DNA from: Acaryochloris marina MBIC11017
Lineage (GTDB): Bacteria > Cyanobacteriota > Cyanobacteriia > Thermosynechococcales > Thermosynechococcaceae
Assembly: GCF_000018105.1 (NCBI RefSeq)
Contig: NC_009926.1
Coordinates: 300,001 to 332,000, forward strand
DNA: 32,000 nucleotides
Reading direction: 5' to 3'
The notes beneath the pieces are model-generated. The model did no database searches and was not told the DNA's origin. It worked only from the letters and a program-made list of their open reading frames with translations. The translations under genes and the position numbers were made by a program. Positions 18,891 through 31,702 of the stretch are shown piece after piece (position 1 is the stretch's first letter; each line of letters starts with the position of its first letter).

Positions 18891-20135
18891 ATGGATAACT
18901 CAATTCGCATCCCGCTCAACCTTCCTGATATTCGAGTTCTAGAGCTATCGAAGACTGAGAGAGGGGATTGGCTCATCAAGATTGAGAGTACGCTTCAAGG
19001 AACAACCTGTCATCAATGCGGACGTGAGATTACTGACCTCCATTGTCATGATCAGCCTTTTCGGATTCGTCACCTGCCATTATTTGAAGTCCCCGTTTAC
19101 TTAGAAATTCGGCCCAAGCGTTATCGATGCAAGTATTGCGATGACCATCCCACAACAACTCAACATTTAGAATGGCACGAACCTCGCAGTCCCAATACAA
19201 AAGCATATGAGCGTTGGCTTCTGCGAATCTTGATCAATTCAACGGTCTCAGATGTTGCCAGAAAACTAGGCGTTAGTGAGGATATCGTCAGTGGAATCAT
19301 TGATCGTTGGATTGCCGCTCAAGTTGACTGGAGCGAATATGCAGACCTCAAAGTTATGGGGATGGATGAGATTTCTCTCAAACGAGGCCATCGTGATTTT
19401 GTGGTTTTGATCACGATTCCTACGACGGATGGGGTGGATATATTGGCAGTTCTAGCCGACCGTAAACAGCAGACAGTGGCAAATTTCCTTCAATCGATTC
19501 CCATTGATTTACGCCAAACCATTGAGCGCGTCTGTACGGACATGTACCAAGGATTTGTCAGTGCAGTCCGAGAACAATTGCCGCAAGCCAAAATTGTCAT
19601 TGACCGCTTTCATGTGACCAAAGCCTATCGTAATTGTGCTGATACGGTTCGTAAACGTGAGGTCAAACGTCTACGACGAGAGCTCTCTAAGCAAGAGTAT
19701 GACAGCATCAAAGGCGCGATGTGGCCTTTTAGAAAACGACCAGAGAATCTGAAAGAGTCAGAGCAACAACTCCTTGAGCGATTGTTTGCTTATTCTCCAC
19801 AACTGAAACAGGCGTACAACCTCCGAGAGAAACTCACGCAGATATTTGAGGGCAGGTACACCAAGCACGGAGCTAAATGTGCCATCCGTGCTTGGTGTAA
19901 ACAAGTACTCAAGAGTGACATCAAGGAATTCGATTGTTTTCTGACCACTATCAATAATTGGATGGACGAGATGACCAACTATTTCCTGGAGGGGTGGACC
20001 AGTGGTTTTGTGGAAGGATTTAATAACCGAGTCAAAGTCTTAAAAAGACGATGCTACGGTATTTTCGATATTGAAAGACTCTTCCAAAGGATTTCTCTTG
20101 ACCTCAATGGGTATCAGACATTCGCTGTGACCTAA
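18891..20135 (+). CDS. ISL3-family transposase
   Basis: 414 aa. The N-terminal zinc finger (CHQCG..CKYC), an HTH segment and a DDE core (..MGMDEISLKRGHRDFVVL.., ..VCTDMYQGF.., ..WTSGFVEGFNNRVKVLKRRCYG) have the ISL3 layout. Confidence 0.9.
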   Translation: MDNSIRIPLNLPDIRVLELSKTERGDWLIKIESTLQGTTCHQCGREITDLHCHDQPFRIRHLPLFEVPVYLEIRPKRYRCKYCDDHPTTTQHLEWHEPRSPNTKAYERWLLRILINSTVSDVARKLGVSEDIVSGIIDRWIAAQVDWSEYADLKVMGMDEISLKRGHRDFVVLITIPTTDGVDILAVLADRKQQTVANFLQSIPIDLRQTIERVCTDMYQGFVSAVREQLPQAKIVIDRFHVTKAYRNCADTVRKREVKRLRRELSKQEYDSIKGAMWPFRKRPENLKESEQQLLERLFAYSPQLKQAYNLREKLTQIFEGRYTKHGAKCAIRAWCKQVLKSDIKEFDCFLTTINNWMDEMTNYFLEGWTSGFVEGFNNRVKVLKRRCYGIFDIERLFQRISLDLNGYQTFAVT

Positions 20136-20155: not shown

Positions 20156-20176
20156 CACGCTAATTCCCGGAGAGCC
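20156..20176 (-). repeat. ISL3 right terminal inverted repeat
   Basis: The reverse complement reads GGCTCTCCGGGAATTAGCGTG. Confidence 0.85.
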
Positions 20177-21071
20177 ATAATTTCTTAATTTTACTTCGGT
20201 TTCTTGAGTTATCTAGTACCTTGCTTTTTTGCAATCTTGAACCGATATCTTTACAGCGTTGGGATAAAAGATTTTGAGGGGTTTGTTTATCTTCAGCTTT
20301 CAGAGATTGAATTTCTAGCTTTATATCTTTGAGTGACAATTGTTCCGTAATTGCAGTATTTAAGAGATTGGCCCTTACTTTTTTATCACTGACACGAGCA
20401 ATAGCTTGACACTTTGTATATTCAAGCAAGCCTTGGCGGAGTACCTCTAAAACATCTTCGGGTAGCTTCAATAGTGGAAGGCGGCTAGATCTGAAACTAT
20501 CAATAGAGAAACGGCCCACTTCCTGCATTGTTTGTTGAACAGTATCGAGTTGGGACAAAACGTTTTGTCCCAACTCCTGACCTCGATGCTTCGCGTGATG
20601 AGCTTGATAGAAAAGGGCAATAACTTGCTCCTTATTAAGTTCAAGAACTAGCCCCAATAAATCAAGGATTGCATCAGTCTCTTCTATCGGATTTAGGTCT
20701 TCTCGTTGAAGGTTCTCGATTAGAGCTACATGTACAGCTTCACGATTATTGAGTTGTTTAGCGATTATAGGGACTTCAGTAAGACCTGCCTCTTTAGCAG
20801 CTCGTAAGCGACGCTCTCCAGCCACTAATTCATATTCACCATTCTTAAGAGGTCTTACAAGGAGTGGTTCCAAAACTCCATGCTCTTTAACTGAAGTAAC
20901 CAATTGAGCAAGTTTTTCGGCGTTGAAATACTTTCGAGGTTGGTTTGTAGGTAAATGAATATTCTTGATAGGTATAGACAGTGAGGAGCTTGATTGCCCA
21001 ACAGAGTCGCGATTGAGTATTGCTGCTACATTAGTCAATTTAGGTTTCGGTGTTCTTTTTCGTGACGGCAC
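20160..21071 (-). CDS. parB: ParB/Spo0J-family partition protein with an IS-altered C-terminus
   Basis: GTG start overlaps the parA stop (TAGTG). ParB box LVAGERRLRAAKEAG is present. The last 5 codons and the stop (WLSGN-TAG) are supplied by the TSD and the IS right end. Confidence 0.85.
   Translation of the reverse strand: MPSRKRTPKPKLTNVAAILNRDSVGQSSSSLSIPIKNIHLPTNQPRKYFNAEKLAQLVTSVKEHGVLEPLLVRPLKNGEYELVAGERRLRAAKEAGLTEVPIIAKQLNNREAVHVALIENLQREDLNPIEETDAILDLLGLVLELNKEQVIALFYQAHHAKHRGQELGQNVLSQLDTVQQTMQEVGRFSIDSFRSSRLPLLKLPEDVLEVLRQGLLEYTKCQAIARVSDKKVRANLLNTAITEQLSLKDIKLEIQSLKAEDKQTPQNLLSQRCKDIGSRLQKSKVLDNSRNRSKIKKLWLSGN
20177..20184. repeat. Target-site duplication, right copy (ATAATTTC)
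   Basis: Identical to 18784-18791. Confidence 0.85.
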
Positions 21072-21823
21072 TATAGTGACTCCAGGTTTTCAGCAATAGA
21101 ATGCAAAATAGAATTAGCAGGATGCTTACGGTCATATATCTCTAAAGGAGTATGATTCATAGATGCATCTGCAAAAGCAACTGCTTTTGGTACTGGAGGG
21201 AATACGGGAGCAATTCCACTGAACTGCTCAATCACTGCTTCAAGAATTTCCTTACTCTGAGAAGTTCGATCATGCAAATTTGGAATTACACCCGCAATTT
21301 GTAGGTTTGATGCCACTCCCTCTACCTTTAGTTCGTTGATCGTGCCTAATAATAAATCTAATCCAACAAAACTTTTATACTGAGTCTGCATTGGAATCAG
21401 TATGTGGGTTGAAGCAACTAAGGAAAGTATGCTGAGTACGCCTAGAGTTGGAGGACAATCAATAAGGATGTAATCGTAGTTTGACTCAATTGATGAAATA
21501 GCTCTTTTTAGACGAGTCTCTTTTGCAATTGCAGTAGCAAGTTGTACGTCAGCAGCACTGAGTGACAAATTACTTGGAACTAAGTCCATTTCATGAATAC
21601 CACAGAGAATTGGTAACGTTTTTTTGTCTAAAATACTTTGGGACACAGTTGTTGCTACTTCATAGGAAGAGATACCCATAAAAATTGTCAACGAGGATTG
21701 AGGATCCATATCAACGAGTAAGACACTATGCCCTAACTGCGACAAAGCATATCCCAGGTTCATTGCAAGGGTTGTTTTTCCTGTACCACCAGCTTGGTTA
21801 AAAAAAGAGAAGATCTTTGTCAC
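21071..21823 (-). CDS. parA: ParA-family partition ATPase
   Basis: 250 aa with a deviant Walker A (FNQAGGTGKTTLAMNL), then LLVDMDPQ and ILIDCPP. Confidence 0.9.
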   Translation of the reverse strand: MTKIFSFFNQAGGTGKTTLAMNLGYALSQLGHSVLLVDMDPQSSLTIFMGISSYEVATTVSQSILDKKTLPILCGIHEMDLVPSNLSLSAADVQLATAIAKETRLKRAISSIESNYDYILIDCPPTLGVLSILSLVASTHILIPMQTQYKSFVGLDLLLGTINELKVEGVASNLQIAGVIPNLHDRTSQSKEILEAVIEQFSGIAPVFPPVPKAVAFADASMNHTPLEIYDRKHPANSILHSIAENLESL

Positions 21824-26549: not shown

Positions 26550-27320
26550 TCATCCAAACACTGGAAACTCCCGCACTCGAAGATCCTGCGGCCATTCCTC
26601 GGCATCCCCACCCTTCGCAGAACGGAGCTTGGGAACCCCCACGGGCTTGCTGCCAAGCTGCTTGATAAACACGGGGATTTCTGCTGATTTGCATTGGTCT
26701 CGAATGGAGCGAATCCAAGTAACATCACAAGGCCGAGCGCTTGGGCCAGACTCACCCCCGGTGATACACCAATTCGCGGGAAGGGCGCTTAGATCCAAGG
26801 GTTCGAGCAAGGGTTCACAACTTAGGAAAATGCCGCCGACTTTCTTCTGTAGCTTTGCCAGTTTGGGAATGACGACATCGCTTTCTCGCTGGGTGCAGAT
26901 GCTTTGGCCCAGCCAGACTTGAGAAGGAACTTGTCTGAACTGGAGAAACTTAGCCGCGACATCCACCCGCTTGGTCAGTAGCAACCAGATCAGGTTTGGG
27001 GTTTTCTCGATGACCTCATCAAACAGATCTAACCGCCAATTAATCAGGTCATCCCGGTCCTCAAACACATCGGCCAAGGACGCACAGAAGACCGTTTCAG
27101 TGACTCCTCGCTCTGCAGCTTTGCGGTTCCATTTATGAGGTTGCTTCCAGTAGGATTCTGATGTGCGAGATCTGGTTCCATCTTTGCCCCACTTCACGCG
27201 ATGATATCGTTTGTCCATCATCGCCTCAGCGTAGCAATTCAAACAGCCAGGACTGTTGTGTGCGCAGCCGATCCAGGAATTGAATGTGTGGTGGGTCCAC
27301 TCAATTTTGCTATTCTCCAT
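26550..27320 (-). CDS. DUF5131 / phage Gp37-Gp68 family protein
   Basis: 256 aa. The N-terminus MENSKIEWTHHTFNSWIGCAHNSPGCLNCYAE (C-x6-C-x2-C) and the later ..WLLLTKR.. and ..ITGGESGP.ARP.. fit the family as I recall it. Confidence 0.8.
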   Translation of the reverse strand: MENSKIEWTHHTFNSWIGCAHNSPGCLNCYAEAMMDKRYHRVKWGKDGTRSRTSESYWKQPHKWNRKAAERGVTETVFCASLADVFEDRDDLINWRLDLFDEVIEKTPNLIWLLLTKRVDVAAKFLQFRQVPSQVWLGQSICTQRESDVVIPKLAKLQKKVGGIFLSCEPLLEPLDLSALPANWCITGGESGPSARPCDVTWIRSIRDQCKSAEIPVFIKQLGSKPVGVPKLRSAKGGDAEEWPQDLRVREFPVFG

Positions 27321-27759
27321 TGGTTAACTCCATCAAAATTTTCAATGTTTCAGGTCGGACATCTCGGAGTCCCTGAGACCCGCGATAGGGAATCGGCTCA
27401 GGCAGTGGAACGATGCTTCCTAACTGCCAAGCAAAGCGCCCCAGTTGCCAGCAACCCACGGCCAACTCCAGCTCAGTCTGTCTGCTGATCAGACTTGAAT
27501 CCATCCGGGGACAATCCACCAGATCCGAAATAGCCACGATGCAACCGAGCGGGTAATCACATGGGTTGCGAGGCACCTTGCCATCCGTCAGATTATTGAC
27601 CTGGCCCACTATCGCTTGCCCGTCTAAATTGATAGGTCGCTTGGCTGCATGAATCGCCAACTTACCCCGGTAGCGAGTGCCCCATGATCGAGTCTCAAAT
27701 TCCTTGAAGTTCAGGGCAATGAAGGTCGCCCAAGGTTGCCAGAGGGTGATGATTTTCAT
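27310..27759 (-). CDS. ASCH-domain protein
   Basis: 149 aa. The N-terminus MKIITLWQPWATFIALNFKEFETRSWGTRYRGKLAIHAAK is the typical phage-type ASCH N-terminus. Its end overlaps the DUF5131 start by 11 nt and its start overlaps the upstream stop (ATGA). Confidence 0.7.
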   Translation of the reverse strand: MKIITLWQPWATFIALNFKEFETRSWGTRYRGKLAIHAAKRPINLDGQAIVGQVNNLTDGKVPRNPCDYPLGCIVAISDLVDCPRMDSSLISRQTELELAVGCWQLGRFAWQLGSIVPLPEPIPYRGSQGLRDVRPETLKILMELTNGE

Positions 27760-28160: not shown

Positions 28161-28703
28161 TTACCCTTCTTGCGCTCGAAGTTGCTTTTCCCGTTCGATT
28201 GCAGGATTCAGCAGTAAATCTTGGAGATTTAAGGTACAACCTTCCTCACTCGGCAGCGGACAAACACCGAAATAGTGAGGCAACCGCACCAGCTCTGACT
28301 GGATGAAATCAAACTGCAAACTGAAGATGGAGTACTTTTTCTGTGCCCGTACCTGCATCCGTCGAATGCGTTCTCGATACTTCCGCGCCATCGGCCAAGG
28401 TCGATAGGGGCGACTGGGCTTGCTGGAGATCGGGCCAGAGCGAATGGCTTGGGGAATTACAATACCGTTTGCCTTGTGGTACGCCTTCACCGCAGCTCCC
28501 ATTTGTGGGGTGGGCACTTCCTGTAAACGCTGCCAGGTTTGCTGGAACATCTGGTTGGCGATTGCCAGTATCTCCGCTGCTTCCTTGCGGAGCTGCGCTA
28601 ACATCCGTTCAAAGGCTTGGCGTTGTTTAGTGGTCTTGACTGGACCAGATTTAGGGAGCTGGAGAGGGAGAGCCGTTTGGACAGCAATCATGATCAACCT
28701 CAT
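28161..28703 (-). CDS. Hypothetical basic protein
   Basis: 180-aa ORF. The first ATG overlaps the upstream stop (ATGA). An alternative ATG at 28691 has GAGG 7 nt upstream. I recognise no family and see no C5-MTase motifs IX or X. Confidence 0.5.
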   Translation of the reverse strand: MRLIMIAVQTALPLQLPKSGPVKTTKQRQAFERMLAQLRKEAAEILAIANQMFQQTWQRLQEVPTPQMGAAVKAYHKANGIVIPQAIRSGPISSKPSRPYRPWPMARKYRERIRRMQVRAQKKYSIFSLQFDFIQSELVRLPHYFGVCPLPSEEGCTLNLQDLLLNPAIEREKQLRAQEG

Positions 28704-29533
28704 TCAAATAATGACAATTGCGGCTGAGGATCTGAATCCTTACTTTTCCTTTTGGGCTTTTTCGCTGGACTCGTTTGATGAATGCCCCCAAATGCCTCTG
28801 CTTGCTGATGCAAGGTTTTGCGAAGTGCATCATACGTGGAAAAGCCCCCATCTGCGATTACCCGGCAAAAGGCATCGATCACGGGGACACTTTCAGGGGT
28901 CACCATACTGACAATTCCTGGTACGTTCTCCATAACAAAAGTTTTGGGTCGGATCTCCAAAATCATGCGGGCGAATTCAAAGATCAGACTATTTCGCGGA
29001 TCAAGAACTTGTCGCTTACCTGCGATTGAAAAGCCTTGGCAAGGTGGGCCACCAAAGACACAATCGACTTCACCAACTCCCACGCCGATGGAATCTAGGA
29101 TCTGCTGGCCCGTGAGCTGACGAACATCCCCCAGCCAGAAATGCTCCACACCGGGACGCTCTGGGGGGCGATGCTGGCCCGACAGGAAGCATTGAGCAAT
29201 GCCACCGTCCTTATCCATCTGCATGATTTTCTCTAGCAGTTTCGTAAACCTGGCCTCATCCTCATCTACGACAAAATTCATATCCAGGGGATAAGCTCCC
29301 AGATTAGCGAGATAGGTTAGTGCTGCATTGGCATCCTTTTCAACGGCGGCTACGACCTGAAACCCACCCTCGATCATCCCCAGACTGAAACCGCCACAGC
29401 CACAAAACAGGTCAATGGCGATTGGAACGTCATACTCTCGTTTGGGGAGCAATAGCCCAGACTGTCGTTGATGATAGGTGGATTGCTGAGGGAGGTAGAG
29501 GCCATCCCCGCTTTGGACAAACAAATCGTTCAT
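28700..29533 (-). CDS. DNA (cytosine-5)-methyltransferase-like protein with motifs I-VI only, no TRD and no motifs VIII-X
   Basis: ATG at 29533 is preceded by AGGAGG. Present are motif I IDLFCGCGGFSLG, motif II AAVEKD, motif IV GGPPCQGFS, motif V DPRNSLIFEF and motif VI FVMENVPG. The protein then ends after about 70 aa in a K-rich tail and PQLSLFE. Confidence 0.75.
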   Translation of the reverse strand: MNDLFVQSGDGLYLPQQSTYHQRQSGLLLPKREYDVPIAIDLFCGCGGFSLGMIEGGFQVVAAVEKDANAALTYLANLGAYPLDMNFVVDEDEARFTKLLEKIMQMDKDGGIAQCFLSGQHRPPERPGVEHFWLGDVRQLTGQQILDSIGVGVGEVDCVFGGPPCQGFSIAGKRQVLDPRNSLIFEFARMILEIRPKTFVMENVPGIVSMVTPESVPVIDAFCRVIADGGFSTYDALRKTLHQQAEAFGGIHQTSPAKKPKRKSKDSDPQPQLSLFE

Positions 29534-29546
29534 GTCCGTCAACCTC

Positions 29547-29762
29547 CTAACAACACAACTTGAGACGGACAGCAGGGCGCAAATCCGTGATTTTGACCGT
29601 GGTGAAGTTCTTGCTCCACTTCCCGGATTTGTCCTTGGCAATCATCAGAACGTGCTGTCTGGAGACTGTGGAGAACACCTTGAGACGGGTGCCGTTTTGT
29701 CTCCTGAGCGTTCCGAGGAAGTACACCAGATGATGCTGAGGCGAGTACACTAACTTGCTCAT
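29547..29762 (-). CDS. Hypothetical small protein
   Basis: ATG at 29762 is preceded by GGAGGA (MSKLVYSPQHH..), giving 71 aa. It ends 13 nt before the MTase-like start. Confidence 0.45.
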   Translation of the reverse strand: MSKLVYSPQHHLVYFLGTLRRQNGTRLKVFSTVSRQHVLMIAKDKSGKWSKNFTTVKITDLRPAVRLKLCC

Positions 29763-31264: not shown

Positions 31265-31702
31265 CTAGAAAGGAATATTGTCATCAACAAATGAACCACC
31301 ACCAGCTTTTGACGCTACTGGTGGCTTCACCTGTCTCTGGGGCTGAGGCGGGGTATGGGTCGGGGCTGGTGCAACAGTGTTGCTCGATGCCTGCTCCCCT
31401 TGCTTGGAACCCAGCAGTTCAACCCGTTGGCAGCGAACCACCACCTTTGAGCGATTGCCGCCTGAGTTCCTGTCAACCTAGCGCTCTTGCAACAGGGAAC
31501 CACTGACCCCAATTTGCGACCCTTTCTGGCAGTACTGCCCAATCACCTCAGCGGTCTTTTCCCAAGCCTCTATCTCGAAAAAGTCAGTCTCGTCTTTGGT
31601 GCGGTTGATGGCAAGGTGGAATTTGGCAATGACTTTGCCAAACTCGAAATAGCGCATCTGTGGATCTGCAGTGAGTCTTCCAATAAGATTTACGGTATTC
31701 AT
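31265..31702 (-). pseudogene. ssb: Single-stranded DNA-binding protein gene with one in-frame TAG (31478-31480)
   Basis: ATG is preceded by AGGAG. The N-terminal OB fold reads MNTVNLIGRLTADPQMRYF...GSQIGVSGSLLQER. A TAG follows, and the same frame continues VDRNSGGNRSKVVVRCQRVELLG..., then a P/Q-rich linker, then GGGSFVDDNIPF-stop, the canonical SSB acidic tip. Confidence 0.8.

Follow-up and report, generated by a model that had tools for sequence, protein, structure and literature searches.

Truncated cytosine-C5 methyltransferase-like proteins of phages and plasmids that end in a putative beta-clamp-binding tail

The window, by which we mean the whole 32,000-nt stretch of Acaryochloris marina MBIC11017 DNA analyzed here (contig NC_009926.1, positions 300,001 to 332,000), carries on its minus strand, at 28700-29533, a gene for a 277-residue protein that resembles the catalytic, N-terminal half of cytosine-C5 DNA methyltransferases, and whose last 30 residues consist of a Lys-rich linker, predicted to be disordered, followed by QLSLF and a final Glu (Table 1). 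The protein matched Pfam family PF00145 with E=3e-30 and 106 bits, as compared with a gathering score of 22 bits, the profile being covered only to about position 119 of 324, and it scored 89.2 bits against the NCBIfam model TIGR00675 (dcm), the cut-off of which is 100.65 bits. Searches of the PDB with phmmer aligned only motif I and motifs IV-VI with solved enzymes (3g7u, M.HaeIII, M.HhaI and DNMT1). Using profile-profile alignment with hhalign, residues 33-234 could be matched to positions 8-157 of a 431-column profile of canonical C5 methyltransferases, that is, from motif I to the 'GY' position of motif VII, the closest canonical profile being 42% identical over 150 columns. The match contains a single clean insertion, residues 82-130 (49 in all), which separates motif II (TY..N) from motif III (GD.R). 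The spacing from motif I to the catalytic PCQ is thereby 122 residues, the canonical median being 72. The polypeptide ends 75 residues past Glu202 of ENV, where canonical relatives mostly have at least 200 residues, and motif VIII (QxRxR) was not found anywhere in the 277 residues, the hhalign match ending at motif VII and hidden Markov models (HMMs) of the C-terminal half giving no match.

Modeling with AlphaFold 2 (AF2) from a 120-sequence alignment gave a mean predicted local distance difference test (pLDDT) score of 81.7, with most of residues 31-160 and 181-240 above 88 and with the insert region at 89-98, values below 50 being confined to the catalytic loop following PCQ and to residues 247-260 and 265-267 of the linker. 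Residues 271-276, which include the pentapeptide, were modeled as a short helix. Foldseek searches with this model returned C5 methyltransferases only, over about 190 aligned columns, and the structure libraries used (PDB and BFVD) held only generic enzymes of this class and no short homolog; by PDB sequence and fold searches there is thus no solved structure of the family. The top PDB fold match was 8yf3, a C5-carboxymethyltransferase with an alternative cofactor, at a level no better than that of ordinary methyltransferase matches, and M.HhaI structures mutated at R165 and R163 were also among the phmmer and Foldseek matches.

An earlier note on this DNA, made from the sequence alone, had called motifs I, II, IV, V and VI and had described a catalytic N-terminal half ending about 70 residues after ENV, and both descriptions were confirmed, the motifs by the profile-profile and PDB alignments and the end point at 75 residues after Glu202. 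The Lys-rich linker and terminal QLSLF of the same note are likewise present, with an enrichment of the tail across the family that is far beyond chance, as described below. The long insert it had proposed also exists, although with a size of 49-50 residues (82-130) rather than the approximately 65 given there, and the GDVRQL segment that had been placed with the motif IV region was by hhalign instead motif III.

The homologs of this protein share its short length. The top 120 database homologs had 246-303 residues (with one of 363) at 47-90% identity, and their sources were metagenomes as well as genomes placed in Peptococcaceae, Desulfobulbaceae, Caldilineaceae, Moorellaceae and other groups. 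When 1.84 billion representatives were searched exhaustively with HMMER, 159 clusters (at 50% identity) fell within a family cut of E<=1e-30, and among the best 150 representatives the short architecture, with 55-110 residues after ENV, was found in 112, of which 109 retained PCQ. When the protein was compared using phmmer with the loci that had been fetched for analysis, the scores were bimodal, with family members above 160 bits and ordinary C5 methyltransferases below 117 bits; the former had 62-95 residues after ENV (two outliers had 47 and 132) and the latter mostly at least 200. Asp41, Phe43, Gly45, Gly47 and Gly48 of motif I were invariant in the family alignments, as were Cys165 (in 120 sequences), Glu202-Asn-Val and Arg180. 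No dedicated model was found in Pfam, NCBIfam or PHROGs, where the family gave generic methyltransferase matches only, and ten unusually long representatives held no Pfam domain besides PF00145. Judging by these searches, the proteins, which we refer to as type A, make up a widespread and previously undescribed family that is borne by phages and plasmids.

A sister subfamily of about 300-350 residues, here called type B (for example P0269, of 321 residues, P0215, P0262, P0270 and P0271-P0342), could be aligned with the family of the window from end to end (hhalign probability 100, E=6.6e-94). Type B proteins share with type A an N-terminal G-L-x-L-P element, the insert and a Q..LF terminus, and they too lack the target-recognition domain (TRD) and motifs IX/X, but they retain motifs VII-VIII (NYGVPQxRRR) and a subsequent FPMPTxW before the linker, which type A does not. 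Of 120 type A and 67 type B sequences, 107 and 54, respectively, had an element of the form G-[LIGV]-x-[LIVMF]-P within 30 residues upstream of motif I, and none of 88 canonical enzymes had one. A spacing of at least 95 residues between motif I and PCQ was similarly seen in 56 of 57 type A and in all 67 type B proteins from the loci, as compared with none of the 88 canonical ones, the medians being 121-126 residues in types A and B (126 in type A) versus 72. The N-terminal element and the insert are thus strictly coupled to the truncated and tailed architecture.

The tail itself was assessed using the strict pattern Q..[LMIF]F. Within the last 25 residues this was found in 66 of the 120 closest homologs, shuffled tails giving a mean of 0.38 and a maximum of 4, and in none of 106 canonical C5 methyltransferases. 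With the last 30 residues considered, it was present in 60 of the 112 short representatives at 50% identity, many others having near variants such as PSLF, DLF or QLSFL, and in 14 of 908 neighbouring open reading frames (ORFs; 1.5%). Among type B proteins 35 of 73 members had the strict tail. The motif usually ended 0-6 residues from the C-terminus, and Gln272 was invariant in a 32-sequence alignment (A1) and at least 90% conserved in a second one (A2), with a consensus tail of Q-x-S-L-F behind a linker that could not be aligned. The commonest forms, which were QLSLF, QLDLF, QMSLF and QLALF, fit the published consensus for bacterial beta-clamp binding, QL(S/D)LF, which is typically located at C-termini (PMC9690074). 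From this pattern of conservation we consider it likely that the tail of the family docks on the beta clamp. Among the window ORFs examined by Pfam scans there was no dnaN; the conservation of the tail across hosts, together with the lack of any conserved neighbour encoded by the elements themselves, speaks for a host protein of universal conservation, such as DnaN, as the target.

Some of the tailed ORFs found in the neighbour background proved to be Dam-like N6-adenine methyltransferases of the D12 type (PF02086), an unrelated class (L134:16588-17442, L090:9133-9990, L094:9224-10201, L106:10680-11900 and L104:5780-6682; proteins P0382-P0501). Among 120 homologs of one such member 45 carried the strict Q..[LMIF]F tail, with 0.4 expected from shuffles, and in nearly all others a conserved W[ML]NY.P was followed at once by a terminal Q[LMI]x[LIM][ILV]. 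Since these Dam-like proteins are complete enzymes, the tail is not confined to truncated methyltransferases, and finding the same peptide on two unrelated methyltransferase folds of the same mobile elements points to a shared function, which would be delivery to a common host hub on DNA.

A few additional tails were seen near family members or on other viral proteins. Further Q..LF-type termini (L104:13220-14431, L085:3482-4753, L001:3807-4289, L127:14584-14955 and L107:10500-10913) belonged to a radical-SAM-like protein of 403 residues (RQAELFR), to a Gp3-like recombination directionality factor (QSTLF) and to three small phage proteins of unknown function (QLALF, QLSLF and QSSLF), and these may be further clamp clients. 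Haloarchaeal viruses encode C5-methyltransferase-like proteins of 283-322 residues (L165:1423-2274, which is Natrialba phage PhiCh1 ORF80, together with L135, L140 and L154) that are truncated after motif VIII, lack motifs IX/X and have no large insert. These four closely related sequences share a PIP box-like Q-A-T-[LIF]-D-A-F (a PIP box being a PCNA-interacting peptide) about 25-35 residues from the C-terminus, which may be an archaeal counterpart of the bacterial clamp tail, although conservation among sequences so closely related is weak evidence.

We also searched for the missing half of the enzyme, using an HMM built from the sequence that follows ENV in 65 canonical methyltransferases from the fetched loci, as well as additional HMMs for motifs VII-VIII and motifs IX-X made from the same relatives, which gave no match near family members. 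In a check of sensitivity with 30 canonical C-halves held out of the training, the C-half HMM detected all 30, at E<=1e-46. In six frames across the window it gave nothing at E<1, so that no similarity to a TRD or to motifs IX/X (GNxVP) was found in any frame, and it gave no match in 29 kb of plasmid pREC3 or in the complete 43.6-kb genome of prophiGD36-2. When 58 family loci with flanks of up to 10 kb were searched with it in six frames, the sole match at E<0.01 was a separate and complete methyltransferase, in L123. Nor was any neighbour gene conserved around the 58 loci upon BLASTP clustering, the commonest being DUF5131, in 13 of 58 and at variable offsets. The gene that follows directly in the window, an ORF of 180 codons, has its ATG overlapping the methyltransferase stop codon (ATGA) and is thus translationally coupled to it. 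It had no Pfam, NCBIfam or PHROG match and, using jackhmmer, no homolog in any other family locus; its counterpart on pREC3 is a 176-residue protein called by PGAP. Circular permutation, with SGLxLP as a relocated motif X or with the insert as a relocated TRD, was considered as well and rejected, as hhalign against the canonical profile gave probabilities of at most 1%.

These findings bear upon several further statements of the earlier note. Its view that so clean an end argues against random truncation was borne out by the approximately 160 clusters at 50% identity having the same architecture, and both the short length and the QLSLF tail, the conservation of which it had proposed to check, are conserved across phyla; the tail is not a peculiarity of this one protein, and the homologs are not full-length enzymes of which a frameshifted remnant of motifs VIII-X is left at this locus. 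The absence of motif VIII, a TRD and motifs IX and X downstream in any minus-strand frame also held with the C-half HMM. Its proposal of a split enzyme with an unrecognised partner is in contrast not supported, there being neither a C-half match near the 58 loci nor a conserved neighbour, and the 180-codon ORF, with which it had proposed to co-fold the protein, is an orphan without a homolog beside any other family member. The other proposal, of a catalytic module recruited to the replisome, gains strong support from comparative evidence in the form of length, insert and tail together with the tails of the sister subfamily and of the Dam-like proteins.

With regards to genomic context, a 96%-identical ortholog annotated as 'DNA cytosine methyltransferase' is found on plasmid pREC3 of Acaryochloris marina MBIC10699, a plasmid of 303 kb typed as conjugative (MOBF/MPF_T). 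The downstream gene order of pREC3 is broadly that of the window, with a hypothetical protein, MT-A70, Gp37/Gp68 (DUF5131), Crp/Fnr, a TPR protein and ParA/ParB, of which MT-A70 was not found in the window. The region of the window is a mosaic of Acaryochloris plasmid DNA, and the transposase, the ParA/ParB pair and the WD40 protein listed in Table 1, together with the ortholog on pREC3, indicate an Acaryochloris megaplasmid and not a prophage. Outside Acaryochloris plasmids the family appears mainly viral, its approximately 160 clusters lying for the most part on contigs of phages: in IMG/VR 52 of the best 80 matches were family members among the matches listed, as compared with only 3 of the best 80, again among those listed, in a species-representative genome set. 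One deposited phage with a member is the Mycobacterium prophage prophiGD36-2 (gp17, with the tail ...GQDALFEVDA). Neighbours in other loci included RecT, ParB-N, KilA-N, ArdC-N, MT-A70 and DUF5131, which are early, replication or DNA-modification genes, and those in the window included ssb and DUF4326.

Table 1. Coordinates in the window of the methyltransferase-like gene, its motifs and the other genes mentioned in the text
Feature	Position	Strand	Remarks and basis
CDS, short (type A) C5-methyltransferase-like protein, 277 aa	28700-29533	-	ORF list and translation; stop included
Start ATG and stop TGA	29533 (start); 28700-28702 (stop)	-	277 codons; sequence
Shine-Dalgarno-like AGGAGG	29543-29548	-	9 nt upstream of ATG; sequence
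N-terminal family-specific element SGLLLP, residues 25-30	29444-29461	-	G26, L27 and P30 nearly invariant (alignments)
Motif I DLFCGCGGFSLG, loop binding S-adenosylmethionine (SAM)	29378-29413	-	Aligned with motif I of 3g7u and M.HaeIII
Motif II region VVAAVEKDANAALTYLAN	29303-29356	-	hhalign against canonical profile; Y74 and N77 invariant
Family-specific insert of about 49 aa, residues 82-130, between motifs II and III	29144-29290	-	hhalign; predicted beta-alpha-beta-beta fold
Motif III LGDVRQL	29114-29134	-	hhalign and alignment; G135, D136 and R138 nearly invariant
Motif IV GGPPCQGFS, catalytic Cys165	29027-29053	-	Aligned with PCQ of solved C5 methyltransferases
Motif V DPRNSLIFEF	28973-29002	-	PDB phmmer, family alignment and hhalign
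Motif VI ENVPG	28916-28930	-	E202, N203 and V204 invariant; aligned with ENV of solved structures
Post-VI helix up to DGGF (motif VII 'GY' position)	28841-28900	-	End of homologous core; hhalign stops at residue 234
Lys-rich low-complexity linker, residues 247-270	28724-28795	-	Predicted disordered; sequence highly variable across homologs
QLSLF, residues 272-276 of 277	28706-28720	-	Exact beta-clamp-binding consensus QL(S/D)LF; one residue before the C-terminus
ORF of 180 aa	28161-28703	-	
Cys-rich ORF of 86 aa	27756-28016	-	
149-aa protein (phrog_3193)	27310-27759	-	
DUF5131/'phage Gp37/Gp68' gene	26550-27320	-	
ssb	31265-31702	-	In-frame TAG at 31478-31480
ParA/ParB partition pair	20160-21823	-	
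ISL3-family transposase	18891-20135	+	
WD40-repeat protein, 1215 aa	4897-8544	-	

Some of the genes close by deserve mention on their own account. The ssb gene encodes an N-terminal OB (oligonucleotide/oligosaccharide-binding) fold and a C-terminal DDNIPF, interrupted by a TAG in frame at what we take, by analogy with other single-stranded DNA-binding proteins, to be the position of a Trp codon (TGG); this could be a nonsense mutation (in which case the gene is a pseudogene), a sequencing error or a readthrough site. The DUF5131 gene gave a weak match to radical SAM mobile pair protein A (TIGR04471), and is preceded upstream, with an 11-nt overlap, by the gene for the 149-residue protein that PGAP annotates as an ASCH-domain protein in related Acaryochloris plasmids. 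Between this ASCH-like gene and the 180-codon ORF lies the Cys-rich ORF (CLGC...CQSC...C..DDC), which had no family match and may encode a small zinc-ribbon protein.

We propose, with a probability of roughly 0.45, that the family consists of TRD-less cytosine-C5 enzymes which mobile elements tether to the beta clamp of the host, whereby freshly copied DNA would be modified, probably at low specificity. The protein of the window retains motifs I-III for SAM binding along with the nucleophile (PCQ in IV) and the acid (ENV in VI); motif VIII, the TRD and motifs IX/X have been lost, and the element at the N-terminus and the folded insert, of about 50 residues, have been gained. Through the QLSLF peptide on its flexible linker the enzyme would bind host DnaN clamps that either stay behind on the new DNA of the element or travel with it, and the clamp, encircling the duplex at or behind replication forks, would supply tethering and processivity in place of the missing small domain. 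The enzyme could then act on cytosines of freshly replicated element DNA with little or no sequence specificity, and an element that is entering or replicating may thereby be protected from restriction. Precedents for this proposal are the targeting of DNMT1 by a PCNA-binding motif and the replication-coupled plasmid methyltransferases M.EcoGIX and M.BceJIII, both taken up below, as well as the enrichment of orphan methyltransferases in the leading regions of plasmids (PMC11541004). What was shown is the architecture, its conservation, the lack of a partner half in the sequences searched and the linkage between tail and truncation; that the proteins bind the clamp, are catalytically active, have low specificity and play a protective role is what we infer.

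Several observations weigh against this proposal. Arginines of motif VIII are important for catalysis in M.HhaI, where their loss severely impairs it, and motif X completes the SAM pocket in canonical C5 methyltransferases. Type A proteins have neither motif, and unaided methyl transfer by them is therefore uncertain; they could require the clamp-DNA complex, an unknown partner or a different chemistry. About 45% of the members lack a strict tail, many of them having near variants and a few no recognisable tail at all. The linker is basic in type A and acidic in type B, with median net charges of +3 and -3.5, respectively, over the 30 residues preceding the tail motif, so that a DNA-binding role of a basic linker cannot be general. 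In profile comparisons neither the N-terminal element nor the insert resembled the parts that were lost, and the idea that they compensate for these thus derives from co-occurrence alone. Finally, in the 49 kb upstream of the gene in pREC3 we found no relaxase or oriT marker, whereby a leading-region position of the gene is not established.

The alternative that survives best, although we regard it as unlikely, is that the family acts upon the clamp without transferring methyl groups, either as a competitor or regulator of the clamp or through some other covalent chemistry at C6 initiated by the Cys residue, which might be a transient covalent capture, an exchange of the C5 proton, a deamination or the transfer of some other group. 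The loss of motifs VIII and X, which should cripple canonical catalysis, agrees with this idea, as does the tail being the best-conserved family-specific feature, and clamp-binding phage and toxin proteins with this motif are known, SocB being one example (PMC9690074). The fold match to 8yf3, with its alternative cofactor, might also be taken in its favour, but that match was, as noted, no better than those to ordinary methyltransferases. Strong purifying selection on motifs I-III, PCQ and ENV would moreover be needless in a pure clamp competitor, the family resides on prophages and plasmids that depend upon host replication, and the finding of the same tail on Dam-like methyltransferases that are complete points to delivery of methyltransferases rather than to clamp inhibition.

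Somewhat less probable still is that the Q-x-x-L-F tail docks elsewhere, on a phage or plasmid protein or on another host hub, the enzyme then being targeted to a different place. Short linear motifs are degenerate and several members have divergent tails, as would suit this alternative, but the commonest tail forms fit the clamp consensus, the extreme C-terminal position is the usual one for clamp motifs, and the tail is conserved across cyanobacterial, Firmicutes, Actinobacteria and Verrucomicrobia hosts.

A split methyltransferase, in which the 277-residue protein would be an N-terminal subunit and motif VIII, the TRD and motifs IX-X would be encoded separately as in M.AquI, has few chances left. 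It has precedents in natural and engineered split C5 methyltransferases (M.AquI, and fragment complementation of M.BspRI), and the gene is indeed followed by a translationally coupled ORF. No canonical C-half was however found within 10 kb of the 58 loci, in the window, in 29 kb of pREC3 or in prophiGD36-2, no neighbour family occurred in more than 13 of the 58 loci and the coupled ORF is free of homologs; a split enzyme with a canonical partner is thereby, as far as the searched sequences can tell, largely refuted, and only a non-homologous partner encoded elsewhere might still exist. That the gene is a decaying pseudogene or an annotation artefact, namely a truncated remnant of a full-length dcm with QLSLF arising by chance, could be argued from the dcm score under its cut-off, the coverage of less than 40% of the Pfam model and the in-frame stop in the nearby ssb, which makes for at least one damaged gene in the region, but this is effectively refuted by the length, insert and tail kept over about 160 clusters (50% identity) in several phyla, by the invariant catalytic residues and confident AF2 fold, by the lack of any motif VIII-X remnant downstream in any frame and by a tail enrichment of more than 100-fold over shuffles.

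Returning to the proposal of a clamp-tethered methyltransferase, one may go a step further and suppose that the sliding clamp replaces the TRD, such that these modules would have no activity in solution and would turn into methylases without sequence specificity only upon docking to DnaN, be it at a replication fork or on a clamp that stays on nascent DNA. We regard this stronger version as doubtful. If true, it would make these proteins the first prokaryotic clamp-dependent DNA-modifying enzymes and, taken together with the Dam-like tails, would suggest replisome-coupled 'methylate as you copy' as a general anti-restriction strategy of phages and plasmids.

Even the more modest proposal would, if true, mean that mobile elements protect their new DNA ahead of restriction enzymes by attaching methyltransferases to the host clamp, a parallel to DNMT1-PCNA coupling that is undescribed in bacteria; in our literature search we found no paper that connects clamp-binding motifs with DNA methyltransferases of bacteria or phages, and a search on truncated prophage C5 methyltransferases and DUF5131 gave nothing relevant. 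Type A, having neither a TRD nor motifs VIII-X, would then also be the smallest catalytic unit known among C5 methyltransferases. It would bear on the ways in which a base can be flipped and the cofactor bound, and could provide tool-builders with a compact cytosine methylase of low specificity that is addressable through the clamp. Clamp tails on phage methyltransferases would constitute a new class of beta-clamp clients, relevant to clamp-targeting antibiotics and to phage-host conflict. For annotation pipelines, the label 'DNA cytosine methyltransferase' ignores that half of the enzyme is missing. The family is of high interest, being widespread, cleanly defined and directly testable.

Comparison with known systems helps to place the family. 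By its sequence the protein falls within the C5-methyltransferase superfamily, and yet it fails four of the defining features thereof. With the canonical enzymes (PF00145; M.HhaI, M.HaeIII and 3g7u of prophage CP-933R) it shares homologous motifs I-VII, including the same PCQ, ENV and DPRNSL; unlike these, type A has no motif VIII, no TRD and no motifs IX and X, and adds the N-terminal element, the insert of about 50 residues and the clamp-type tail. The M.AquI and M.BspRI fragments are alike to it in being polypeptides with only N-terminal C5 methyltransferase motifs. The alpha subunit of M.AquI, however, reaches motif VIII and part of the TRD, with motifs IX-X in an adjacent beta subunit, and no such partner was found near the 58 family loci or in the complete phage genome. 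DNMT3L, a C5-methyltransferase-like protein with a natural truncation, no longer has its catalytic residues and serves as a regulatory subunit of DNMT3A/B; C-terminal motifs are missing in both DNMT3L and type A, but the type A family keeps PCQ and ENV and has no conserved partner. The plasmid methyltransferases M.EcoGIX and M.BceJIII resemble the proposed function in being encoded by mobile elements, promiscuous, coupled to replication, physically associated with the host replication protein Pol I and protective against restriction upon entry (PMC7736820), although they are N6-adenine enzymes of another fold class, untruncated, and associated with Pol I rather than by way of a clamp peptide. 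The coupling to a clamp as such has, by analogy, a eukaryotic counterpart in DNMT1, which is targeted to new DNA through a PCNA-binding motif and thus combines a cytosine-C5 catalytic module with a short linear motif for sliding-clamp binding and with preferential action on newly replicated DNA (PMC9690074). DNMT1, however, has a complete catalytic domain including a TRD, and its PIP box is N-terminal and auxiliary, whereas the family described here has its beta-clamp-type motif at the C-terminus, has lost the whole DNA-recognition half and is borne by mobile elements.

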